Assembly (NCBI GenBank): GCA_038534095.1
Contig: JBCAXK010000004.1
Span: forward strand, 8,397-72,396
From: Chlamydiota bacterium
GTDB lineage: Bacteria; Chlamydiota; Chlamydiia; Chlamydiales; SM23-39
Direction of reading: 5' to 3'
Length of the DNA: 64,000 bases
The notes below the pieces were generated by a model, which worked only from the letters and a program-made list of their open reading frames with translations, did no database searches and was not told the origin of the DNA. Positions 8,778-15,628 of this stretch are shown piece by piece. Numbering within the stretch: position 1 is the stretch's first letter; each line of letters begins with the position of its first letter. A program made the position numbers and the translations under genes.

Positions 8778-9062
8778 CTAACGCCAATTCTGCGGGTAGT
8801 ATTGTAAATCCTGTCTAATGATACCCCTTCGCTTCCAACGTATTCTTCTCCAATGGTCTTTTACTCGTGTTTCAGTCGATTTTTTTTGATGGGTTTTTGT
8901 AGTAGGTGAGCTCTTTGTATACGAAAACGCTTGGGAAAAGCACTCTCTAACGATTTTTTGTACTTTCGAGGCTAATTGTTTGAGTTGCTCTCCGATACAA
9001 GCAAAAGCTTTACAACATTGTTCTGGTATCTGTGAGCATAGTAAGTTTTGTACTGTTGTCAT
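8778..9062 (-). CDS. Small hypothetical protein
   Basis: ATG preceded by GGGAGA RBS; Cys-rich N-terminus and basic C-terminus. Confidence 0.55.
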   Translation of the reverse strand: MTTVQNLLCSQIPEQCCKAFACIGEQLKQLASKVQKIVRECFSQAFSYTKSSPTTKTHQKKSTETRVKDHWRRIRWKRRGIIRQDLQYYPQNWR

Positions 9063-9273
9063 TATTTCTCCCTTAAATAATTAGTTAAACTTCCCTAAAA
9101 AATAGCATTAAAGTTTTTTAAATTAAAAACATTCAAATTAATTATATTAAAAAAACCATTAAAAATGAATAAACTTTTAGTTCAATGGCTTTTAATTTTC
9201 TTAAACATATTAATATCAGATGTTTAATGTAAAAAACCAGTCTTTTTAAAATAAAATTTTTTGTTATTGTTGA

Positions 9274-9501
9274 GTGTTATCCATTAAAAACCTGGATAAA
9301 CAAACATCCTCATTATTGACATCGCTAATATACCTTACTTTAGAGGGCAAAAACTTAAGATCTCTTCCAGAAAACATTGGAAATTGCAAATCACTACGAT
9401 CACTCATTTTAGACGGCAAAAAATTCGCTCCTCTCGAACAAAAAATTCAAGGTTTGATGCCACGAACAAGTATCCATTTCGCGTACTACGAGAACGAATA
9501 A
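9274..9501 (+). pseudogene. Leucine-rich-repeat gene fragment
   Basis: LTSLIYLTLEGKNLRSLPENIGNCKSLRSLILDG gives about 1.5 LRR units; GTG start without a clear RBS; only 75 aa. Confidence 0.6.
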
Positions 9502-9588
9502 TCAAAAGAAACAGAAATCACAAATAAGATTTTGGGAATGTTTGCATGATTCATTTCTAGATTCAGGCTATTTTCTGTGAGACTTAGA

Positions 9589-9616
9589 ACGTCTGATAAT
9601 TGGTATTATGTGACAT
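9589..9616 (+). other. Candidate dif (XerC/XerD recombination) site
   Basis: ACGTCTGATAA-TTGGTA-TTATGTGACAT has the 11-6-11 layout; right arm matches E. coli XerD arm TTATGTTAAAT at 9/11; intergenic. Confidence 0.65.
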
Positions 9617-9839
9617 AAAGAAGAAATCAGAAGTGATTGTGCTGTAGGTCCTAAGAGCGCCGCAAGTTTTAACAAGTGTTTTTTTAATAAAGATCATTCA
9701 TCTCTATTATTCACTATTAGTCACATTAAGAATTTCTTTTTTTCTTTTTCTTGTGTTTTTTATTCGCAAAAAGTTCGTCATGTTGAGTATGATTTTATGT
9801 ACTGTATCAGAAACCATAACAAAAAAGGAGTGTTTGTTT

Positions 9840-10769
9840 ATGCATGTTCCTGTTCCTACAGTACAGTACGCCAATTACATAAAACAGCTCCAAACTAGGG
9901 GTCTCTTTTTAGGTTCTATTAGCGAAGAAGTTGAAAAGTTGGCCAATGTACGTGATAGCTGGTGCAATCAGATCCAGAAAATCAACAAATTCATTTTTGA
10001 TCAGATTGTTTCTTCTTTAGAAAAACTGCCTAAAATCATGAAAGCAGCAAAAAATAATCAACCGATCGTAAAAATAGATGAATGCAATCTAGCGCTTGTG
10101 CGAGCCGCATTTATGCAACGCATCCCCCTATATATACAGAAAAAAGACCGCAAAGCAAGAACTTTAAGCCCCAAAGACTTAGTCCCATTTCAATTCGATC
10201 TCTGTTTTGAAAAATGCGCAGAAAACGCGAGGAAAGAACTCTACGCAGAAATGATCCGTTTAGGAGCGAAGTTCAGCAAAAGAGGCTCTGAATTACCATT
10301 CATCGATCTTTTTAACAAGTTGTTCCACAAATCTTCTAAAGCAAAAAATAGCCCGCTACAAATAGCAAACGCTCCTAACACAAAAGAACAGGATGCTCAA
10401 AATAGAGCGTTAATAAAGCCTAGCGATGATGGAGTGATCGTAGAAAAAACGGATGAGGTTACCGAATTTCAGGGCGATCAAAATCGTGTTAAGCAAACTG
10501 CGTATCAGAGGATGCGCGTTCAAAAAACACTCACCACGGTTTTTCAATGGGTGTTTGGTGGCAAAAAAGCTGGGCCACAATACAGGGGTAATTTCGCGGA
10601 TCTTCCAACTAACGCAGAATATAAAGATCACAAGTGCGAACATAAGGTTCCATCATTCGCTGGAGCTGATGAAACTAAGAAAACAGCCCTCTCCTCTCCT
10701 ATCAAAACGTCTAAGGGGAATAACGGATTTATGATCGTTGATCTAAAGCCAGTTATAGCGCTTGATTGA
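9840..10769 (+). CDS. Hypothetical Lys-rich protein
   Basis: Long ORF; ATG at 9840 preceded by AAGGAG. Confidence 0.65.
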   Translation: MHVPVPTVQYANYIKQLQTRGLFLGSISEEVEKLANVRDSWCNQIQKINKFIFDQIVSSLEKLPKIMKAAKNNQPIVKIDECNLALVRAAFMQRIPLYIQKKDRKARTLSPKDLVPFQFDLCFEKCAENARKELYAEMIRLGAKFSKRGSELPFIDLFNKLFHKSSKAKNSPLQIANAPNTKEQDAQNRALIKPSDDGVIVEKTDEVTEFQGDQNRVKQTAYQRMRVQKTLTTVFQWVFGGKKAGPQYRGNFADLPTNAEYKDHKCEHKVPSFAGADETKKTALSSPIKTSKGNNGFMIVDLKPVIALD

Positions 10770-10871: not shown

Positions 10872-12833
10872 TTATCCAGCCAGATTGCTTTGAAATTTTT
10901 TATACGAAGTCTGGTAACTTCTCCGCTGGTCTTGAAAACCCTCTTTGAGATTCAAAAGAGGATAAGGATTTTTTCTCTTTCGAAGAGCTCCTATAAACAG
11001 ACAAAATAAATAGATCATTTTTGCTTCAATCTTATCTTGTTGGCTAAACAATTTTTCGTGAATGATCTCTTGCTCTTTCGGGCTGTACCAGTTCTTGAGG
11101 CAATTCCCAACATGCATCGATAGGTAGCTTTTGATTCTTTTAACCCTAGAAATAGAGCTCGGAATTTCTTCCATATAGCCCTTGTAAAGGGAATTTTTCG
11201 GGAATAAATGGTACAGCAATTTTACAGGCATTGATACGCCAACATCGAAACTGTTAGAAGATTGTGCCCATCCTTTTGGCATAAACGCGCAAAATTTATC
11301 ATAATAATGGACATCGCCAGAAATCTCGCCGGGAAGTACTCCTGTCAAATCATAATAGAAATGATGTGCATGGATTCTTCGTAAATTCTGTAGCGCGGAG
11401 CGAATTTGCTTTTCAGGGCTCGTTGCGCCCGAATGAGCATTTTCGACAAGGTTGGGTAAAATTTGATCGTATAAAATATCTTTACAAGCTCTTAGGTATC
11501 CGAGTAAACAATACCCTCCAGTTTCGGCTAACGAATATAAAATGAACTGAATGGTTTGTTTGTCTTTTGCTTGCAATAAGTAATGCACGATTTTTTTCGT
11601 GTACGTGTGGGCTGTAAGCAATTTTTCATCGCTTCCTGCGCTAGTACGCTTTTTCAAGCTCATATTATTGATAAAAATCTTCAGTTTATTTCTGAGATAA
11701 TCTTGTAAGAATTGTTCTTTTGAAATTTCTCTACTTGCAGCAATGCTTTGTAGTAAACGATCTATTTTCTGAGTAGTAGCTCCTCTGCATATGGATTCTT
11801 CCTCAGATAACCTATTCATATCCTGTGAAAATTTATTATCAAAGCGCAAGTTTTCTAAAAAAATCTGATAAGTTTTTTGCGTAGGCTTGGGAAAGTATTC
11901 ATCAAAGAGCTCTAGCAGTTTATCAAACTCAGAACTTTCGGGTAGGTCTTGAATATCTACCGATTTGATCATGTTGTAGGAAGGATTTGGTTCAAAAAAT
12001 GTCGAGCGCGTTTTATCGTCGAATAACAGCTCTATTTCTTCGACAGTCAATTGAGCATCTGCTTTCGTAGGCTTTTTGTAGGGCTTGTCAATTTCTACGT
12101 AGGAAGGGCCAGGATGTAGTTCGAATTTCTTAAATGTATCCTTCAAATAGTAACGAACAAGGGAATCTATCCGGTAGATAATCGCTTGTTTCAATCCATG
12201 AACACGTTCGCTAATCTCTAAAACACCTAGAATTTTTGTAAAAATGTCTGGACTGACAAAAGTCAGTACACCCTGAAAAAAGATATTGAAATACTTTGCG
12301 CAGAAAACGCGGACCTTGATTGGTATGCAAGACATTCGGATGAGTTTCGCAATGCCTAAAAAAAGGAGCGATCCCCCCACATAATATAGATCCTCATAAA
12401 GAGTGAGTAAAAATAAGGAATAGGAAAAAATGACTTTTGCAACGGTATCGAGATGTTCGGTAAAAAACCGGGTGATCTGGCGCGTTTCGTAGCTTGTTTT
12501 TTGAGGAAATAGGTGCGTATAAAACCGGTTTTCATGCTGCTTGGGCATTGGAGAAGAATACAAACTTTGTACTGCGAGACAGTATCCTATTGGGAAGAAA
12601 GCGATTAAAGAAGTGCAAGAAATACACGTAGCTAAAAATCCAGTCGCTACGTAGCCAGCTACCTTATGAGCAACGCGTTGCACAATCAGAGTAGTTAGGG
12701 AAAGTATCTGTATATAAGGAGCTAGGTACATGAAGCGATTATTGCCCTGCTTTTGCGCCGCAGATTCTTCAAAAAGCTGTGAAGCAAGGTAACTGGTCGC
12801 AGCTCCTGGTAAAAAAGCCGCTATGCTATTCAT
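10872..12833 (-). CDS. Hypothetical protein with N-terminal membrane segments and a large helical C-terminal domain
   Basis: 653-aa ORF, AT-rich coding sequence, several hydrophobic stretches in the first ~200 aa. Confidence 0.75.
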   Translation of the reverse strand: MNSIAAFLPGAATSYLASQLFEESAAQKQGNNRFMYLAPYIQILSLTTLIVQRVAHKVAGYVATGFLATCISCTSLIAFFPIGYCLAVQSLYSSPMPKQHENRFYTHLFPQKTSYETRQITRFFTEHLDTVAKVIFSYSLFLLTLYEDLYYVGGSLLFLGIAKLIRMSCIPIKVRVFCAKYFNIFFQGVLTFVSPDIFTKILGVLEISERVHGLKQAIIYRIDSLVRYYLKDTFKKFELHPGPSYVEIDKPYKKPTKADAQLTVEEIELLFDDKTRSTFFEPNPSYNMIKSVDIQDLPESSEFDKLLELFDEYFPKPTQKTYQIFLENLRFDNKFSQDMNRLSEEESICRGATTQKIDRLLQSIAASREISKEQFLQDYLRNKLKIFINNMSLKKRTSAGSDEKLLTAHTYTKKIVHYLLQAKDKQTIQFILYSLAETGGYCLLGYLRACKDILYDQILPNLVENAHSGATSPEKQIRSALQNLRRIHAHHFYYDLTGVLPGEISGDVHYYDKFCAFMPKGWAQSSNSFDVGVSMPVKLLYHLFPKNSLYKGYMEEIPSSISRVKRIKSYLSMHVGNCLKNWYSPKEQEIIHEKLFSQQDKIEAKMIYLFCLFIGALRKRKNPYPLLNLKEGFQDQRRSYQTSYKKFQSNLAG

Positions 12834-13050
12834 GATGTACTCTATCCAATACTAAAACAAAAATATGAACAATTATTTTGAATACTTCTCATAAAAACAC
12901 AAGAAAAAATTGCATGGTCCATGCAAAGAAATCAGGATTGTTGTCCCATTTTACCAGGATTTTTCAGGCGGATTTTTACAGAAAAAATCCTGATGAACCC
13001 ATCTTTACTCGAAAAATGGGCACTATACGATCGGTACTAACGTACGTTGC

Positions 13051-14037
13051 CTAAATTAGGTTGCTATCTAGAAGATCTTCCACCTCTTTCAAAGGAGGAA
13101 TCATCGTTGTTAAAAGAGCGTATAAGGGAAAAGCGATTTTATCGATGAAGTCTTGCTGGGAAAGTAGACCGTGAAAAGGGGCGATTTCTTCTTGAACGCA
13201 CTCCCCCTTTTTTTCTAGCTGGTGCATTTTTTCTAGGTAGAGCTCTTTGCGCAGGCGAAAAAACCATTTTTCAGCAAGATCACGTCCTCGGATAAATTGA
13301 CTGAGGTCGGCGCATTTGATGAGCAAAATACTGATGCGCATGTCTAGATTATTGTTCTCATTTTGACAGAATTGAAAAAATTCTTCGTGCCTTTGCATAT
13401 CGGTAGATACGATCAAATGTTCGATATACGTTTCAAGAAAGGCGTGGTGTTTTTTAGGAAACACTGGCGTTTCTGGATCATTCCAGAGGTTTTTCGCCAC
13501 ATCTACATGGTATTTTTCTAGAGTAGATGTTTCTCCATACTTTTCATAAAGCTCAGTAAAGAGTTCCTTCTGATAAGAAGCGCTTTTTCCGGGATGAGCA
13601 AGATCGTGGTTCAAAGCCGCTAAAAAAAGGCCAAAACGTTTCTCTAAAGAAAGCTTTTCTCGCAAGCATCCTTTTGTATCGATCATATAGAGAAACTGGG
13701 TCACTCCCACCGCATGGTGGTAATTGTGGTAGGGATGATCCTCATAATTTTCTCTGACCGATTCTATGTAGGTGCGAAAAACCCCTTCTTGTATGGAGAG
13801 GGCCTCTAAAAAACTTCTAGAATGGAACATCACATAGACAAAATCATCGAGCTCATCCGCCTGATACCGGAGAGCATCAAAAGACCAGCTCTTTAAAACC
13901 GCATATTTTTTATCCACAGTTGATGCATCTTTTTGTATGATTGTTATCACCAGAAATACAGCAAACGGTTTTTTCCGCCTAGTTTTCGTTAAAAAAATTC
14001 TTGATCTTAAGGTCCCTTTTTCTTGCCAAAAAGCCAA
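13051..14037 (-). CDS. Class I 3',5'-cyclic nucleotide phosphodiesterase (PDEase_I)
   Basis: PYHNYHHAVGV, AALNHDLAHPG, STLEKYH, IVSTDMQRH, LIKCADLS, QQDFID in eukaryotic order and spacing; true start probably GTG at 13950 or 13917. Confidence 0.88.
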   Translation of the reverse strand: MAFWQEKGTLRSRIFLTKTRRKKPFAVFLVITIIQKDASTVDKKYAVLKSWSFDALRYQADELDDFVYVMFHSRSFLEALSIQEGVFRTYIESVRENYEDHPYHNYHHAVGVTQFLYMIDTKGCLREKLSLEKRFGLFLAALNHDLAHPGKSASYQKELFTELYEKYGETSTLEKYHVDVAKNLWNDPETPVFPKKHHAFLETYIEHLIVSTDMQRHEEFFQFCQNENNNLDMRISILLIKCADLSQFIRGRDLAEKWFFRLRKELYLEKMHQLEKKGECVQEEIAPFHGLLSQQDFIDKIAFPLYALLTTMIPPLKEVEDLLDSNLI

Positions 14038-14057: not shown

Positions 14058-14342
14058 ATGGAACCTTCGCTTATTGAGATGAAAAATCAAGCTACTCTGT
14101 GTATGGAAGATCTCTTCGATAAATTAGAGCTTTGCGCGCGTATAGGGATGCTCGATACCTCCTCTTCTTATTACAACGAAGTCCTCCTGTTAAAAAGAAC
14201 AGCCTTTTATTGTACGAGTATTTCCCAGCTAGGCGAAGTGATCGAAGAGGGAAAAACGGTAGAAAAAAACCTGGACCACTGGCTTGCGCAAAAGGGAGTA
14301 GACACAACCGCCTTGCGCTGGCCTAAGATGCCGAACATATGA
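14058..14342 (+). CDS. Hypothetical protein
   Basis: ORF whose stop overlaps (ATGA) the start of the next gene; start uncertain (14001, 14058 or 14079). Confidence 0.6.
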   Translation: MEPSLIEMKNQATLCMEDLFDKLELCARIGMLDTSSSYYNEVLLLKRTAFYCTSISQLGEVIEEGKTVEKNLDHWLAQKGVDTTALRWPKMPNI

Positions 14343-15628
14343 ATGACACCTCTTCTCCCTTTCTCACCTGCCACAGAAAGCGCGTTCTTTTCACGCTAAT
14401 TGCGATCACGTTCATCGATTACATGAGCGTAGGTCTTGTTTATCCCCTATTTTCCTCTTTGATTTTTGATGAGAACGCCCGCTTTTTGCCCAAAGGCTCT
14501 TCCTATGTTCTTAGAGGATTTGTTTTAGGGATGCTTTTTTCACTCATGCCCCTTGTTCAATTTTTTAGCGCGCCAATTTTGGGAGCTTTTTCCGATTTTC
14601 GAGGAAGAAAAGGGGTGCTCATTGCAGCTCTTGTCATCGGGGTGATCGCCTACTGCCTTGCTGTTGCAGGGGTGCATTTTGAGGATTTAACGCTTCTGAT
14701 CATCTCAAGGATGCTTCTTGGAATTGCAGGAGGATCTGCCGCAGTAGTGCAAGCCGTTTTTTCCGATATTAGCACAGAAGAGGAGAAAACCCATTTATTC
14801 AGCCTGTTCAATATGGCTTTGGGGACAGGCCTTAGCATAGGACCATTTATTGGGGGGAAGTTTTCAGATCCCTCATTGGTCTCGTTTGGTTGTTACGCGC
14901 TCCCCTTCTGGATCGCAGCATGCATGATGCTTTTGAACCTATTTTTTGTATGTTTTTTTTTAGAAGAAACGAAAAAAGAACGGAACAAAATGGCGATTTC
15001 TATGAATATTGGCCTAAAAAACCTGTGCCAAGCCCTTCGACTTCCTCGCCTCCGATTGCTTTTTTTCTGCGCCTTTATTTTTACCTTTGGTTGGTCATTT
15101 TTTATCGAGTTTGTCCCTGTTTATCTCATTGGAAAGTACAGATTTAGCGCTTCAGATGTAGGAAATTTTTATGCGTACTGCTCTTTTTGCTACGCAATTA
15201 GCTGTGGAATTTTTATCCGTCCATTTATCAGCTATTTAGAAAATCCTCATATTCTTTTTAGTACTTTTCTCTCGACTAGCCTCTATTTATGCCTCTTTTT
15301 TTTCATACAAAAATCGAGCTACCTTTGGCTCTATTTTCCCTTTCTACTCTTTCTCATCGCACTGATTTTTCCCACCTTAACAAGCCGAGTTTCTATTGAG
15401 GGAACCGCTGAAGAACAGGGGAAAATCCTAGGCATTCTTCAATCGGTTCAATCGATGGCTTTTGCTAGCGCGCCGCTGTTTTCTGGGCCGCTCATAGGGG
15501 TCTTTATCCATATGCCCGTTTTAGTGGGAGCCTTATCGATAGGTATCGCCGCTCTTTCGTATGGCTATTTTTTTAGAAGTGCTCCGAAAGTGGAAGAAAA
15601 CCTCTCATCAGAAGTGGGAGATTTATGA
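14339..15628 (+). CDS. MFS transporter, TetA/DHA1-like
   Basis: QFFSAPILGAFSDFRGRK (motif A), SRMLLGIAGG, G.SIGPFIGG (motif C), EEQGKILG. Confidence 0.87.
   Translation: MNDTSSPFLTCHRKRVLFTLIAITFIDYMSVGLVYPLFSSLIFDENARFLPKGSSYVLRGFVLGMLFSLMPLVQFFSAPILGAFSDFRGRKGVLIAALVIGVIAYCLAVAGVHFEDLTLLIISRMLLGIAGGSAAVVQAVFSDISTEEEKTHLFSLFNMALGTGLSIGPFIGGKFSDPSLVSFGCYALPFWIAACMMLLNLFFVCFFLEETKKERNKMAISMNIGLKNLCQALRLPRLRLLFFCAFIFTFGWSFFIEFVPVYLIGKYRFSASDVGNFYAYCSFCYAISCGIFIRPFISYLENPHILFSTFLSTSLYLCLFFFIQKSSYLWLYFPFLLFLIALIFPTLTSRVSIEGTAEEQGKILGILQSVQSMAFASAPLFSGPLIGVFIHMPVLVGALSIGIAALSYGYFFRSAPKVEENLSSEVGDL

Follow-up and report, generated by a model that had tools for sequence, protein, structure and literature searches.

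We analysed a stretch of 64,000 nucleotides from a member of the Chlamydiota (assembly GCA_038534095.1, contig JBCAXK010000004.1, positions 8,397 to 72,396), hereafter the window, for a gene that a first-pass annotation of the bare sequence had proposed to encode a eukaryote-type class I cyclic-nucleotide phosphodiesterase (PDE). Enzymes of this class are known above all from eukaryotes and are important drug targets. The window belongs to contig C4 of a metagenome-assembled genome (MAG) of 1.615 Mb in 87 contigs, which is estimated to be 96.6% complete with 0.32% contamination. We refer to this genome as G000, to a genome of the same genus as G001, to genomes of two further genera of the same family as G015 and G020, and to a genome of another family as G041. 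The segment flagged by the first-pass annotation is exactly one open reading frame (ORF), which together with its surroundings holds the following features (aa, amino acids):

13051..14037, minus strand: class I PDE ORF, a single ORF of 328 aa from TTG 14037
13051..13917, minus strand: class I PDE coding sequence from the gene-caller start, 288 aa from GTG 13917, catalytic domain only
13918..14037, minus strand: in-frame 5' extension up to TTG 14037, with a basic stretch and the hydrophobic run PFAVFLVITII; a relic or possibly still-used signal peptide
13588..13731, minus strand: YHNYHHA codons (13711-13731) and HDLAHPG codons (13588-13608), metal-binding and general-acid His/Asp motifs
13147..13521, minus strand: LEKYH, STDMQRH, KCADLSQ and SQQDF codons, with the fourth metal ligand Asp204, the purine-reading Gln and the clamp Phe
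12910..12926, minus strand: terminator-like hairpin and T-run, about 125 nt past the PDE stop codon, from a consensus scan

Residues are numbered in the 288-aa form. The public gene call for the locus (P0001) is 100% identical to the ORF and begins 40 codons downstream of the TTG, which yields a PDE protein without a signal peptide. The terminator-like hairpin suggests that the gene is monocistronic, a sign that is weak on its own, with two such sites found versus 1.4 expected in shuffled sequence. A promoter scan gave nothing above chance (two found versus 3.4 expected, both on the opposite strand). The GC content of the gene is 41.0% overall and 42.1% at third codon positions, within about 1.3 standard deviations of the values for 41 long ORFs of the window (43.9 ± 2.2 and 43.7 ± 3.4, respectively).

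Searches against Pfam-A assign the ORF to the PDEase_I family (PF00233) with E = 5.9e-38 and a score of 131.4 bits (gathering score 24.8) over profile positions 1-234 of 238. No other Pfam-A domain was matched in the ORF, NCBIfam has no model for the protein, and PF00233 is matched only once in the whole G000 genome (132.3 bits). The first-pass annotation had described a bare catalytic domain without a GAF or PAS module, and both this and its family assignment are confirmed by the profile search. All the motifs that it had listed are also present, in the order found in eukaryotic enzymes: YHNYHHA (residues 63-69), HDLAHPG (104-110), LEKYH (133-137), STDMQRH (171-177), KCADLSQ (201-207) and SQQDF (253-257). 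The HMMER alignment matches them one to one with the catalytic residues of human PDE9A (fHnfrH and cHDldHpg in the latter), namely at H64, H68, H104, D105, H108, E134, H137, T172, D173 and D204. All of these except H137 are invariant in our alignments A1, A2 and A3; H137 is invariant in A1 and A3 and not in the 40-sequence A2. The first Gln and the Phe of SQQDF align with the Q and F of the PDE9A motif aQigF. The clamp Phe (F257) is nearly invariant among relatives in A2 and A3. The roles given to residues of the two-metal site are in part general knowledge of these enzymes. They otherwise follow a description of PDE4B, whose catalytic domain is presented as a 16-helix, two-metal domain there (PMC13095499).

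Among solved structures, the best sequence match is human PDE9A (E about 1e-30), followed by trypanosomatid PDEB1 and human PDE4B (about 1e-19 to 1e-20). An AlphaFold2 model built from a 40-row alignment has a mean pLDDT of 94.9, a pTM of 0.93 and 16 helical elements. Foldseek matches it best to PDE9A (3dy8_A, E = 1.1e-14, TMq 0.90, 27% identity), and the matches listed, PDE9A, PDE4B/D and Salpingoeca RhoPDE, have TMq values of 0.85-0.91. By profile, metal site, Gln/Phe pocket and predicted fold, the protein is thus a class I PDE, and as judged from sequence and model it is a complete catalytic domain with nothing attached. The PF00233 tag is already assigned to such proteins by automatic annotation.

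PDE9A (3dy8, 2hd1) is the closest characterized enzyme in both sequence, over residues 47-319 of the 328-aa ORF, and fold, and it shares the metal ligands, the general-acid His, the purine-reading Gln and the clamp Phe. The window protein differs from it in being shorter (288 aa), in lacking the N-terminal regulatory region and in having Ala instead of Asn after HDxxHPGxx. This Ala (HDLAHPGKSAS) is shared with the closest relatives and stands where the PROSITE-type signature, which we take to be HD-x-x-H-x-[AG]-x-x-[NQ], wants Asn or Gln.

We then surveyed the distribution of the family, which is patchy in chlamydiae. PF00233 lies above the cut-off in five of 61 relatives, G000 included (G000, G001, G015, G020 and G041), in three of the 36 other genomes of the family, and in three of 401 genomes sampled evenly across the phylum (G000, G001 and G041); three more of the 401 contain sub-threshold fragments of about 19-20 bits. 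Because PF00233 is this rare among chlamydiae, the gene does not belong to any bacterial clade that is widespread and inherited vertically, which is in line with the first-pass annotation. More widely, a word-indexed search of 5.8 billion proteins returned six relatives in the near-length band, the window protein among them, and an exhaustive HMMER search of 1.84 billion representatives gave 6726 proteins at E<=1e-3, only eight of which reach E<=1e-30. The named proteins that we looked up just outside the close group are all eukaryotic (a euglenid protein, a tunicate PDE9A-like and a bird PDE4D-like protein, and proteins of Stygamoeba, Syssomonas and Cymbomonas).

A pattern and tblastn scan of 185,579 species genomes yielded 21 loci, four of which duplicate loci already in our set. 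The closest loci in these species-representative genomes are assigned to Chlamydiota, Chlamydiae or Chlamydiales, which bears out the description of the genome as chlamydia-like. Twelve of the 21 loci encode full-length stand-alone PDEs of SAR324, 'Deltaproteobacteria', Lambdaproteobacteria and unclassified MAGs, with 26-30% identity to the window protein, and another five are partial weak matches, mostly from DPANN archaea. Metagenome contigs from JGI and ENA (556 pattern matches, 290 relatives among them, 80 of these kept) contained nothing new that is close; three of the 80 have at least 45% identity, and all three were already in the set. A link to giant viruses was considered and dropped, since viral contigs gave only partial matches of 26-27% identity (four relatives among 89 pattern matches). 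A literature search with subscription journals outside its reach found no paper on a chlamydial class I PDE.

For phylogenetic analysis, PDE domains were cut with the HMM (hidden Markov model) from alignment A1. At least 80% of the model was covered by 194 of 221 sequences, a step at which the truncated P0006 was dropped, and removal of four duplicates left 190. Trees were inferred with FastTree (190 rows), with IQ-TREE under LG+C20 PMSF in a quick analysis of 77 chosen rows, and with IQ-TREE under LG+G4 in a careful analysis of 48 rows, from which P0017 was left out for its very long branch and whose bootstrap stopped short of full convergence (correlation 0.952). The window protein falls into one monophyletic clade of short PDEs with support of 99 (190 rows), 98 (77 rows) and 100/99 (48 rows). 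This clade contains the orthologues of G001, G020 and G015 and the proteins P0003, P0005, P0007, P0008, P0010, P0012, P0013 and P0017. Together with P0006, its members are 28-56% identical to the window protein, and except for P0013 they are bare catalytic domains of 255-310 aa. Its stem is long, with 25-34% identity to the nearest relatives outside. This short-PDE lineage is thus real and distinct.

The exception, P0013, is a basal metagenomic protein of 596 aa, in which an anchor and a class III cyclase domain (185 bits) precede the PDE; the window protein has no cyclase domain. By its residues, the P0013 cyclase appears eukaryote-like or guanylate-cyclase-like. The domain order is the reverse of that in CAPE of streptophytes, which has an N-terminal PDE and a C-terminal class III cyclase. 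CAPE sequences were left out of our trees; one source reports the class I PDE of CAPE to be PDE9-related (PMC8115329).

Two further bacterial groups form clades of their own, each with support of 99-100. The SAR324-type PDEs, which include those of Lambdaproteobacteria and other MAGs (L012-L016, L018-L024), are likewise bacterial and single-domain, in frames of 326-364 aa with the full PDE domain aligned; they differ from the window protein in their low identity and in constituting a separate clade (support 100). The third group consists of PAS-PAS-PDE proteins of other Chlamydiales (G041, L002:1450-3591 on the minus strand; P0157, P0128 and P0158). These are also class I PDEs of Chlamydiota; they measure 650-720 aa with two PAS domains before the PDE, lie nearer to the Pfam consensus (PF00233 304 bits in G041), are 27% identical to the window protein and form a separate clade in every tree (100/100).

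The backbone that joins the three bacterial clades to the eukaryotic families is a polytomy in every tree, and none of the three trees identified a eukaryotic sister of the short-PDE clade. Approximately unbiased (AU) tests rejected neither its union with the SAR324-type PDEs (p-AU 0.585), nor with the chlamydial PAS-PDEs (0.439), nor with all bacterial rows together (0.607), nor with the PDE9-like eukaryotic rows (0.707). A sister position to PDE9-like proteins is thus allowed, not demonstrated. The tests used the 48 rows and LG+G4, which is more prone to long-branch artefacts than a mixture model, on groups named after the trees had been seen. The free quick search on these rows was poor, as three of four constrained searches reached higher likelihoods, and only non-rejections are used. 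The nearest outside rows are the Cymbomonas protein and three short fragments from metagenomes, and because nothing but open forks connects them to the clade, we did not accept them as evidence for an algal donor. With the backbone a polytomy and no union rejected by the AU tests, the lineage may ultimately be of eukaryotic or of old bacterial stock.

The neighbourhood of the gene speaks to its age. Beside the PDE lie, in this order, a small divergent ORF, a major facilitator superfamily (MFS) transporter and a SpoU methyltransferase; the first two are:

14058..14342, plus strand: divergent 94-aa neighbour, a family-core gene by which the conserved locus is recognised
14339..15628, plus strand: MFS transporter after the small ORF (PF07690, 125.6 bits; tblastn synteny)

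The arrangement of PDE, divergent small ORF and MFS transporter also occurs in G020 and G015. Identities to G020 are 46% for the PDE, 46% for the small ORF and 60-65% for the transporter, and the corresponding values for G015 are 33%, 34% and 39-40%, so that PDE identity declines in step with that of the neighbour genes. G001 has SpoU, then the PDE and a weak relative of a 653-aa orphan, without the small ORF or the transporter. In G004 and G013, the PDE-less genomes that we inspected, the place ahead of the small ORF is taken by an amino-acid-permease-like gene. Since the PDE occupies the same locus in three genera, any transfer must be old. The gene does not look like a recent arrival: its composition is ordinary, the locus is shared by three genera, and the AT-rich patch with orphan ORFs borders it on a single side. 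These data indicate an old resident that descended vertically in part of the family, and give no indication of a recent capture tied to the AT-rich stretch between 9 and 13 kb. The first-pass annotation had proposed a host-derived enzyme. The distribution, patchy in chlamydiae and broad among eukaryotes, does agree with a transfer from eukaryotes, but the claim as stated is not supported, given that no eukaryotic sister was identified, the backbone polytomy, the AU non-rejections, the ordinary composition and the shared locus.

Of the 36 genomes of the family, 30 have the 94-aa ORF, which was found neither in 24 genomes of other families nor in G001. It has no Pfam or NCBIfam match, and its product is helical with only weak helical-bundle look-alikes among known structures. 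As a partner of the PDE it was rejected, most of the 30 genomes that carry it having no PDE. Directly downstream of the PDE lies a 653-aa orphan (10872..12833, minus strand) with several N-terminal hydrophobic segments and no Pfam or NCBIfam match, which could be a lineage-specific membrane protein. Its relative in G001, also downstream of the PDE (L005:2478-3659), matches at 25% over 170 aa (E = 7e-7). We rejected it as an operon partner, as the terminator-like hairpin separates the two genes and the G001 protein is the only relative seen.

The AT-rich patch that the first-pass annotation had seen next to the PDE is real: positions 9001..10000 have a GC content of 0.304, lower than any other 1-kb bin of the 64 kb, while the window as a whole has about 0.43. 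Within the patch, a 338-aa orphan ORF (9753..10769, plus strand) has no Pfam match. Over the first 100 residues there is a weak resemblance to TrbJ, a P-type conjugative transfer protein (TIGR02780, with 31.3 bits against a cut-off of 100.55 and E = 1.3e-7), and the ORF may be a remnant of a conjugative element.

To relate the PDE to cyclic-nucleotide signalling, we surveyed G000 for cyclases, for proteins binding cyclic nucleoside monophosphates (cNMPs) and for other PDEs. The genome encodes two class III cyclases (PF00211, 99 and 85 bits) of 487 aa and at least 672 aa, with N-terminal parts that resemble transmembrane and HAMP regions. The best solved relatives of the 487-aa cyclase are all bacterial adenylate cyclases (a phytochrome-adenylate cyclase fusion, CyaB, cyanobacterial CyaC and photoactivated adenylate cyclases), and by the Lys/Thr specificity rule we presume both enzymes to be adenylate cyclases. 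Higher PF00211 scores, 159-211 bits versus 85-99 in G000, are seen for class III cyclases of the chlamydial genomes G050, G016, G048 and G058, which may be eukaryote-like.

G000 also encodes two proteins with a PF00027 cNMP-binding domain. The first is a 561-aa protein similar to NDH-2 and pyridine-nucleotide-disulfide oxidoreductases with the binding domain at its C-terminus (L032:1435-3120, minus strand, contig C1), a fusion that suggests control of a respiratory or redox enzyme by cyclic AMP (cAMP). The second is a stand-alone 138-aa protein (L033:1390-1806, plus strand, contig C3) adjoining a HAMP-containing protein. Its gene overlaps the start of that for the 429-aa HAMP protein (L033:1743-3032, plus strand), which weakly resembles the phosphatase SiaA and sensor kinases; the pair may be a cAMP-regulated partner-switching or phosphatase module. 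Class II PDEs (PF02112) and class III CpdA (NF008359), whose folds are unrelated to that of class I and whose presumed job, removal of cAMP, is the same, were both looked for in G000. No class II PDE was found in the 96.6%-complete genome, and neither of its metallophosphoesterases comes near the CpdA model, for which the higher of their scores is 19.2 bits (cut-off 225). Thus, the class I PDE is the sole recognisable cAMP eraser in this genome.

We therefore favour, with a probability of about 0.5, a cytoplasmic cAMP phosphodiesterase that would end the bacterium's own cAMP signals; the activity, substrate, location and pairing with the cyclases are inferred from the genome sequence. The cAMP would be made by the two membrane-bound sensor adenylate cyclases, read by the two cNMP-binding proteins and switched off in the cytoplasm by the PDE, a two-metal HD-type hydrolase that would open the cyclic phosphate of cAMP, and possibly of cyclic GMP (cGMP), to give the 5'-monophosphate. 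Of the two functions that the first-pass annotation had considered, control of the bacterium's own cyclic-nucleotide pool and secretion into the host, the former fits the genome better because of the two adenylate cyclases, the two cNMP-binding proteins and the lack of any other recognisable cNMP PDE in G000.

Several observations weigh against this reading. PDE9A, the best solved match, is specific for cGMP, so that the substrate may be either cAMP or cGMP; the G000 cyclases, in contrast, look like adenylate cyclases. The PDE gene (C4) is not adjacent to the cyclase and receptor genes (C7, C16, C1 and C3). In favour of the reading, all five PF00233 carriers among the 61 relatives have a class III cyclase, as compared to 26 of the 56 others, a count that is small, comes from genomes related to one another and is only suggestive. 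Against it, as these 26 have cyclases and no class I PDE, chlamydiae do not generally need this enzyme for cAMP signalling. Finally, the N-termini of several relatives point outwards. Sec-type signal peptides are present in four of 12 aligned clade members, P0003, the G020 orthologue (when read from an upstream ATG), P0006 and P0010. Each consists of a basic n-region, a hydrophobic core of 10-15 residues and small residues before the mature domain, ending for example in ...IEAFA/MDQ (G020) and ...LSLSA/TQK (P0003). The best 11-residue hydropathy is 2.41-2.55 in these four versus <=1.96 in the eight members without a signal peptide, and the basal P0013 has an N-terminal hydrophobic anchor that reaches 2.94. 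In the window, the frame is open from GTG 13917 up to TTG 14037 and encodes ...KTRRKKPFAVFLVITIIQKDAS..., with a hydropathy of 2.80. Because of the four signal peptides and the P0013 anchor, the short-PDE lineage may ancestrally have been exported.

The DNA upstream of the window gene aligns with the region that encodes the G020 signal peptide, and the G020 ATG corresponds to CGG in the window. The homologous stretch of G001 is interrupted by charged residues and lacks a start codon, and no comparable hydrophobic stretch lies upstream in P0005 or in the G015 orthologue. The lost start codons in the window and G001, like the gene-caller start, speak for a cytoplasmic location. Judged from these alignments, the signal peptide probably goes back to the ancestor of the inner part of the clade, if not further, and in the window's genus it has since decayed.

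These N-termini carry the foremost alternative, in which the PDE is exported, either from TTG 14037 or by another secretion route, and destroys host cAMP/cGMP outside the bacterial cytoplasm, whether in the periplasm, in the lumen of the inclusion or in the cytosol of the host. The benefit would lie either in the manipulation of host signalling or in protection of the bacterium against cyclic nucleotides of the host. We regard this export as possible and propose it only tentatively. Chlamydiae live inside eukaryotic cells that use cAMP and cGMP, which counts in its favour, as do the signal peptides of the four relatives, the hydropathy of the TTG form, which exceeds that of all four, and the signal-peptide coding DNA that is still recognisably shared by G020 and the window. 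However, the start codon that G020 uses for it is lost. Upstream, translation could begin solely at a TTG that lies 20 bp away from the ATG of the divergent gene, and the n-region would then be 23 residues long, which is unusual. By eye, the sequence that follows the hydrophobic run (QKDAS/T) does not have small residues at both -3 and -1, and the same-genus orthologue has a broken hydrophobic stretch without a start codon for it. The secreted enzyme of the first-pass annotation thus gains some support from the four relatives and loses it where the ancestral signal-peptide start is gone from the window.

An extension of this idea, which we consider unlikely, would reconcile both locations: the chlamydial short PDEs would ancestrally have been Sec-exported by environmental chlamydiae and have destroyed host cAMP/cGMP at the envelope or inclusion, and in the window's genus the enzyme would be in the course of re-internalisation for the bacterium's own cyclase-receptor circuit. 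The route would be loss of the start codon and decay of the signal peptide, a change of compartment caught part-way. If true, the ancestral protein would be a bacterial effector that acts opposite to many cAMP-raising toxins.

It is less likely still that the enzyme is a relic of weak activity, or that it acts on another nucleotide signal or phosphodiester; candidate substrates would be 2',3'-cyclic nucleotides or a different cyclic mononucleotide. The long stem of the clade and its low identity to outside relatives would fit such a reading, as would the Ala that the window protein and its closest relatives have after HDxxHPGxx; five other clade members (P0007, P0008, P0010, P0011 and P0012) have Asn at this position. 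The purine-reading Gln, moreover, is replaced in P0017 and, by Arg, in the same-genus orthologue. Yet this Gln is kept in nine of the 11 clade members that cover the region, and the window protein retains it together with the clamp Phe and all metal ligands. The model also superposes on PDE9A and PDE4 within the TMq range given above, and an intact ORF is conserved across four genomes of the family.

Contamination of the assembly by a contig or gene from a eukaryotic host or another misbinned organism, which the 87-contig MAG and the overwhelmingly eukaryotic occurrence of class I PDEs (PMC8115329) might suggest, is very improbable and effectively refuted by synteny: the PDE lies inside a contig of at least 72 kb, is flanked by SpoU, the MFS transporter, a BamE-like gene and the family-core small ORF, has no introns, typical GC content and orthologues in a shared context in three other genomes of the family, and the estimated contamination is as low as stated above.

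Bacteria are usually said to use class III PDEs, class I being overwhelmingly eukaryotic (PMC8115329). The finding strengthens the case for true PF00233 enzymes in several separate bacterial lineages, the short chlamydial PDEs, the chlamydial PAS-PDEs and the SAR324-type PDEs, and touches on the question of whether the family arose in eukaryotes in the first place. The export signals in some relatives raise the possibility of host-directed degradation of cyclic nucleotides. Taken together with the sensor adenylate cyclases and cNMP receptors of this genome and its lack of another recognisable cAMP PDE, an intact class I PDE fixed at a conserved locus in obligate intracellular bacteria would offer a testable handle on cAMP signalling in environmental chlamydiae.

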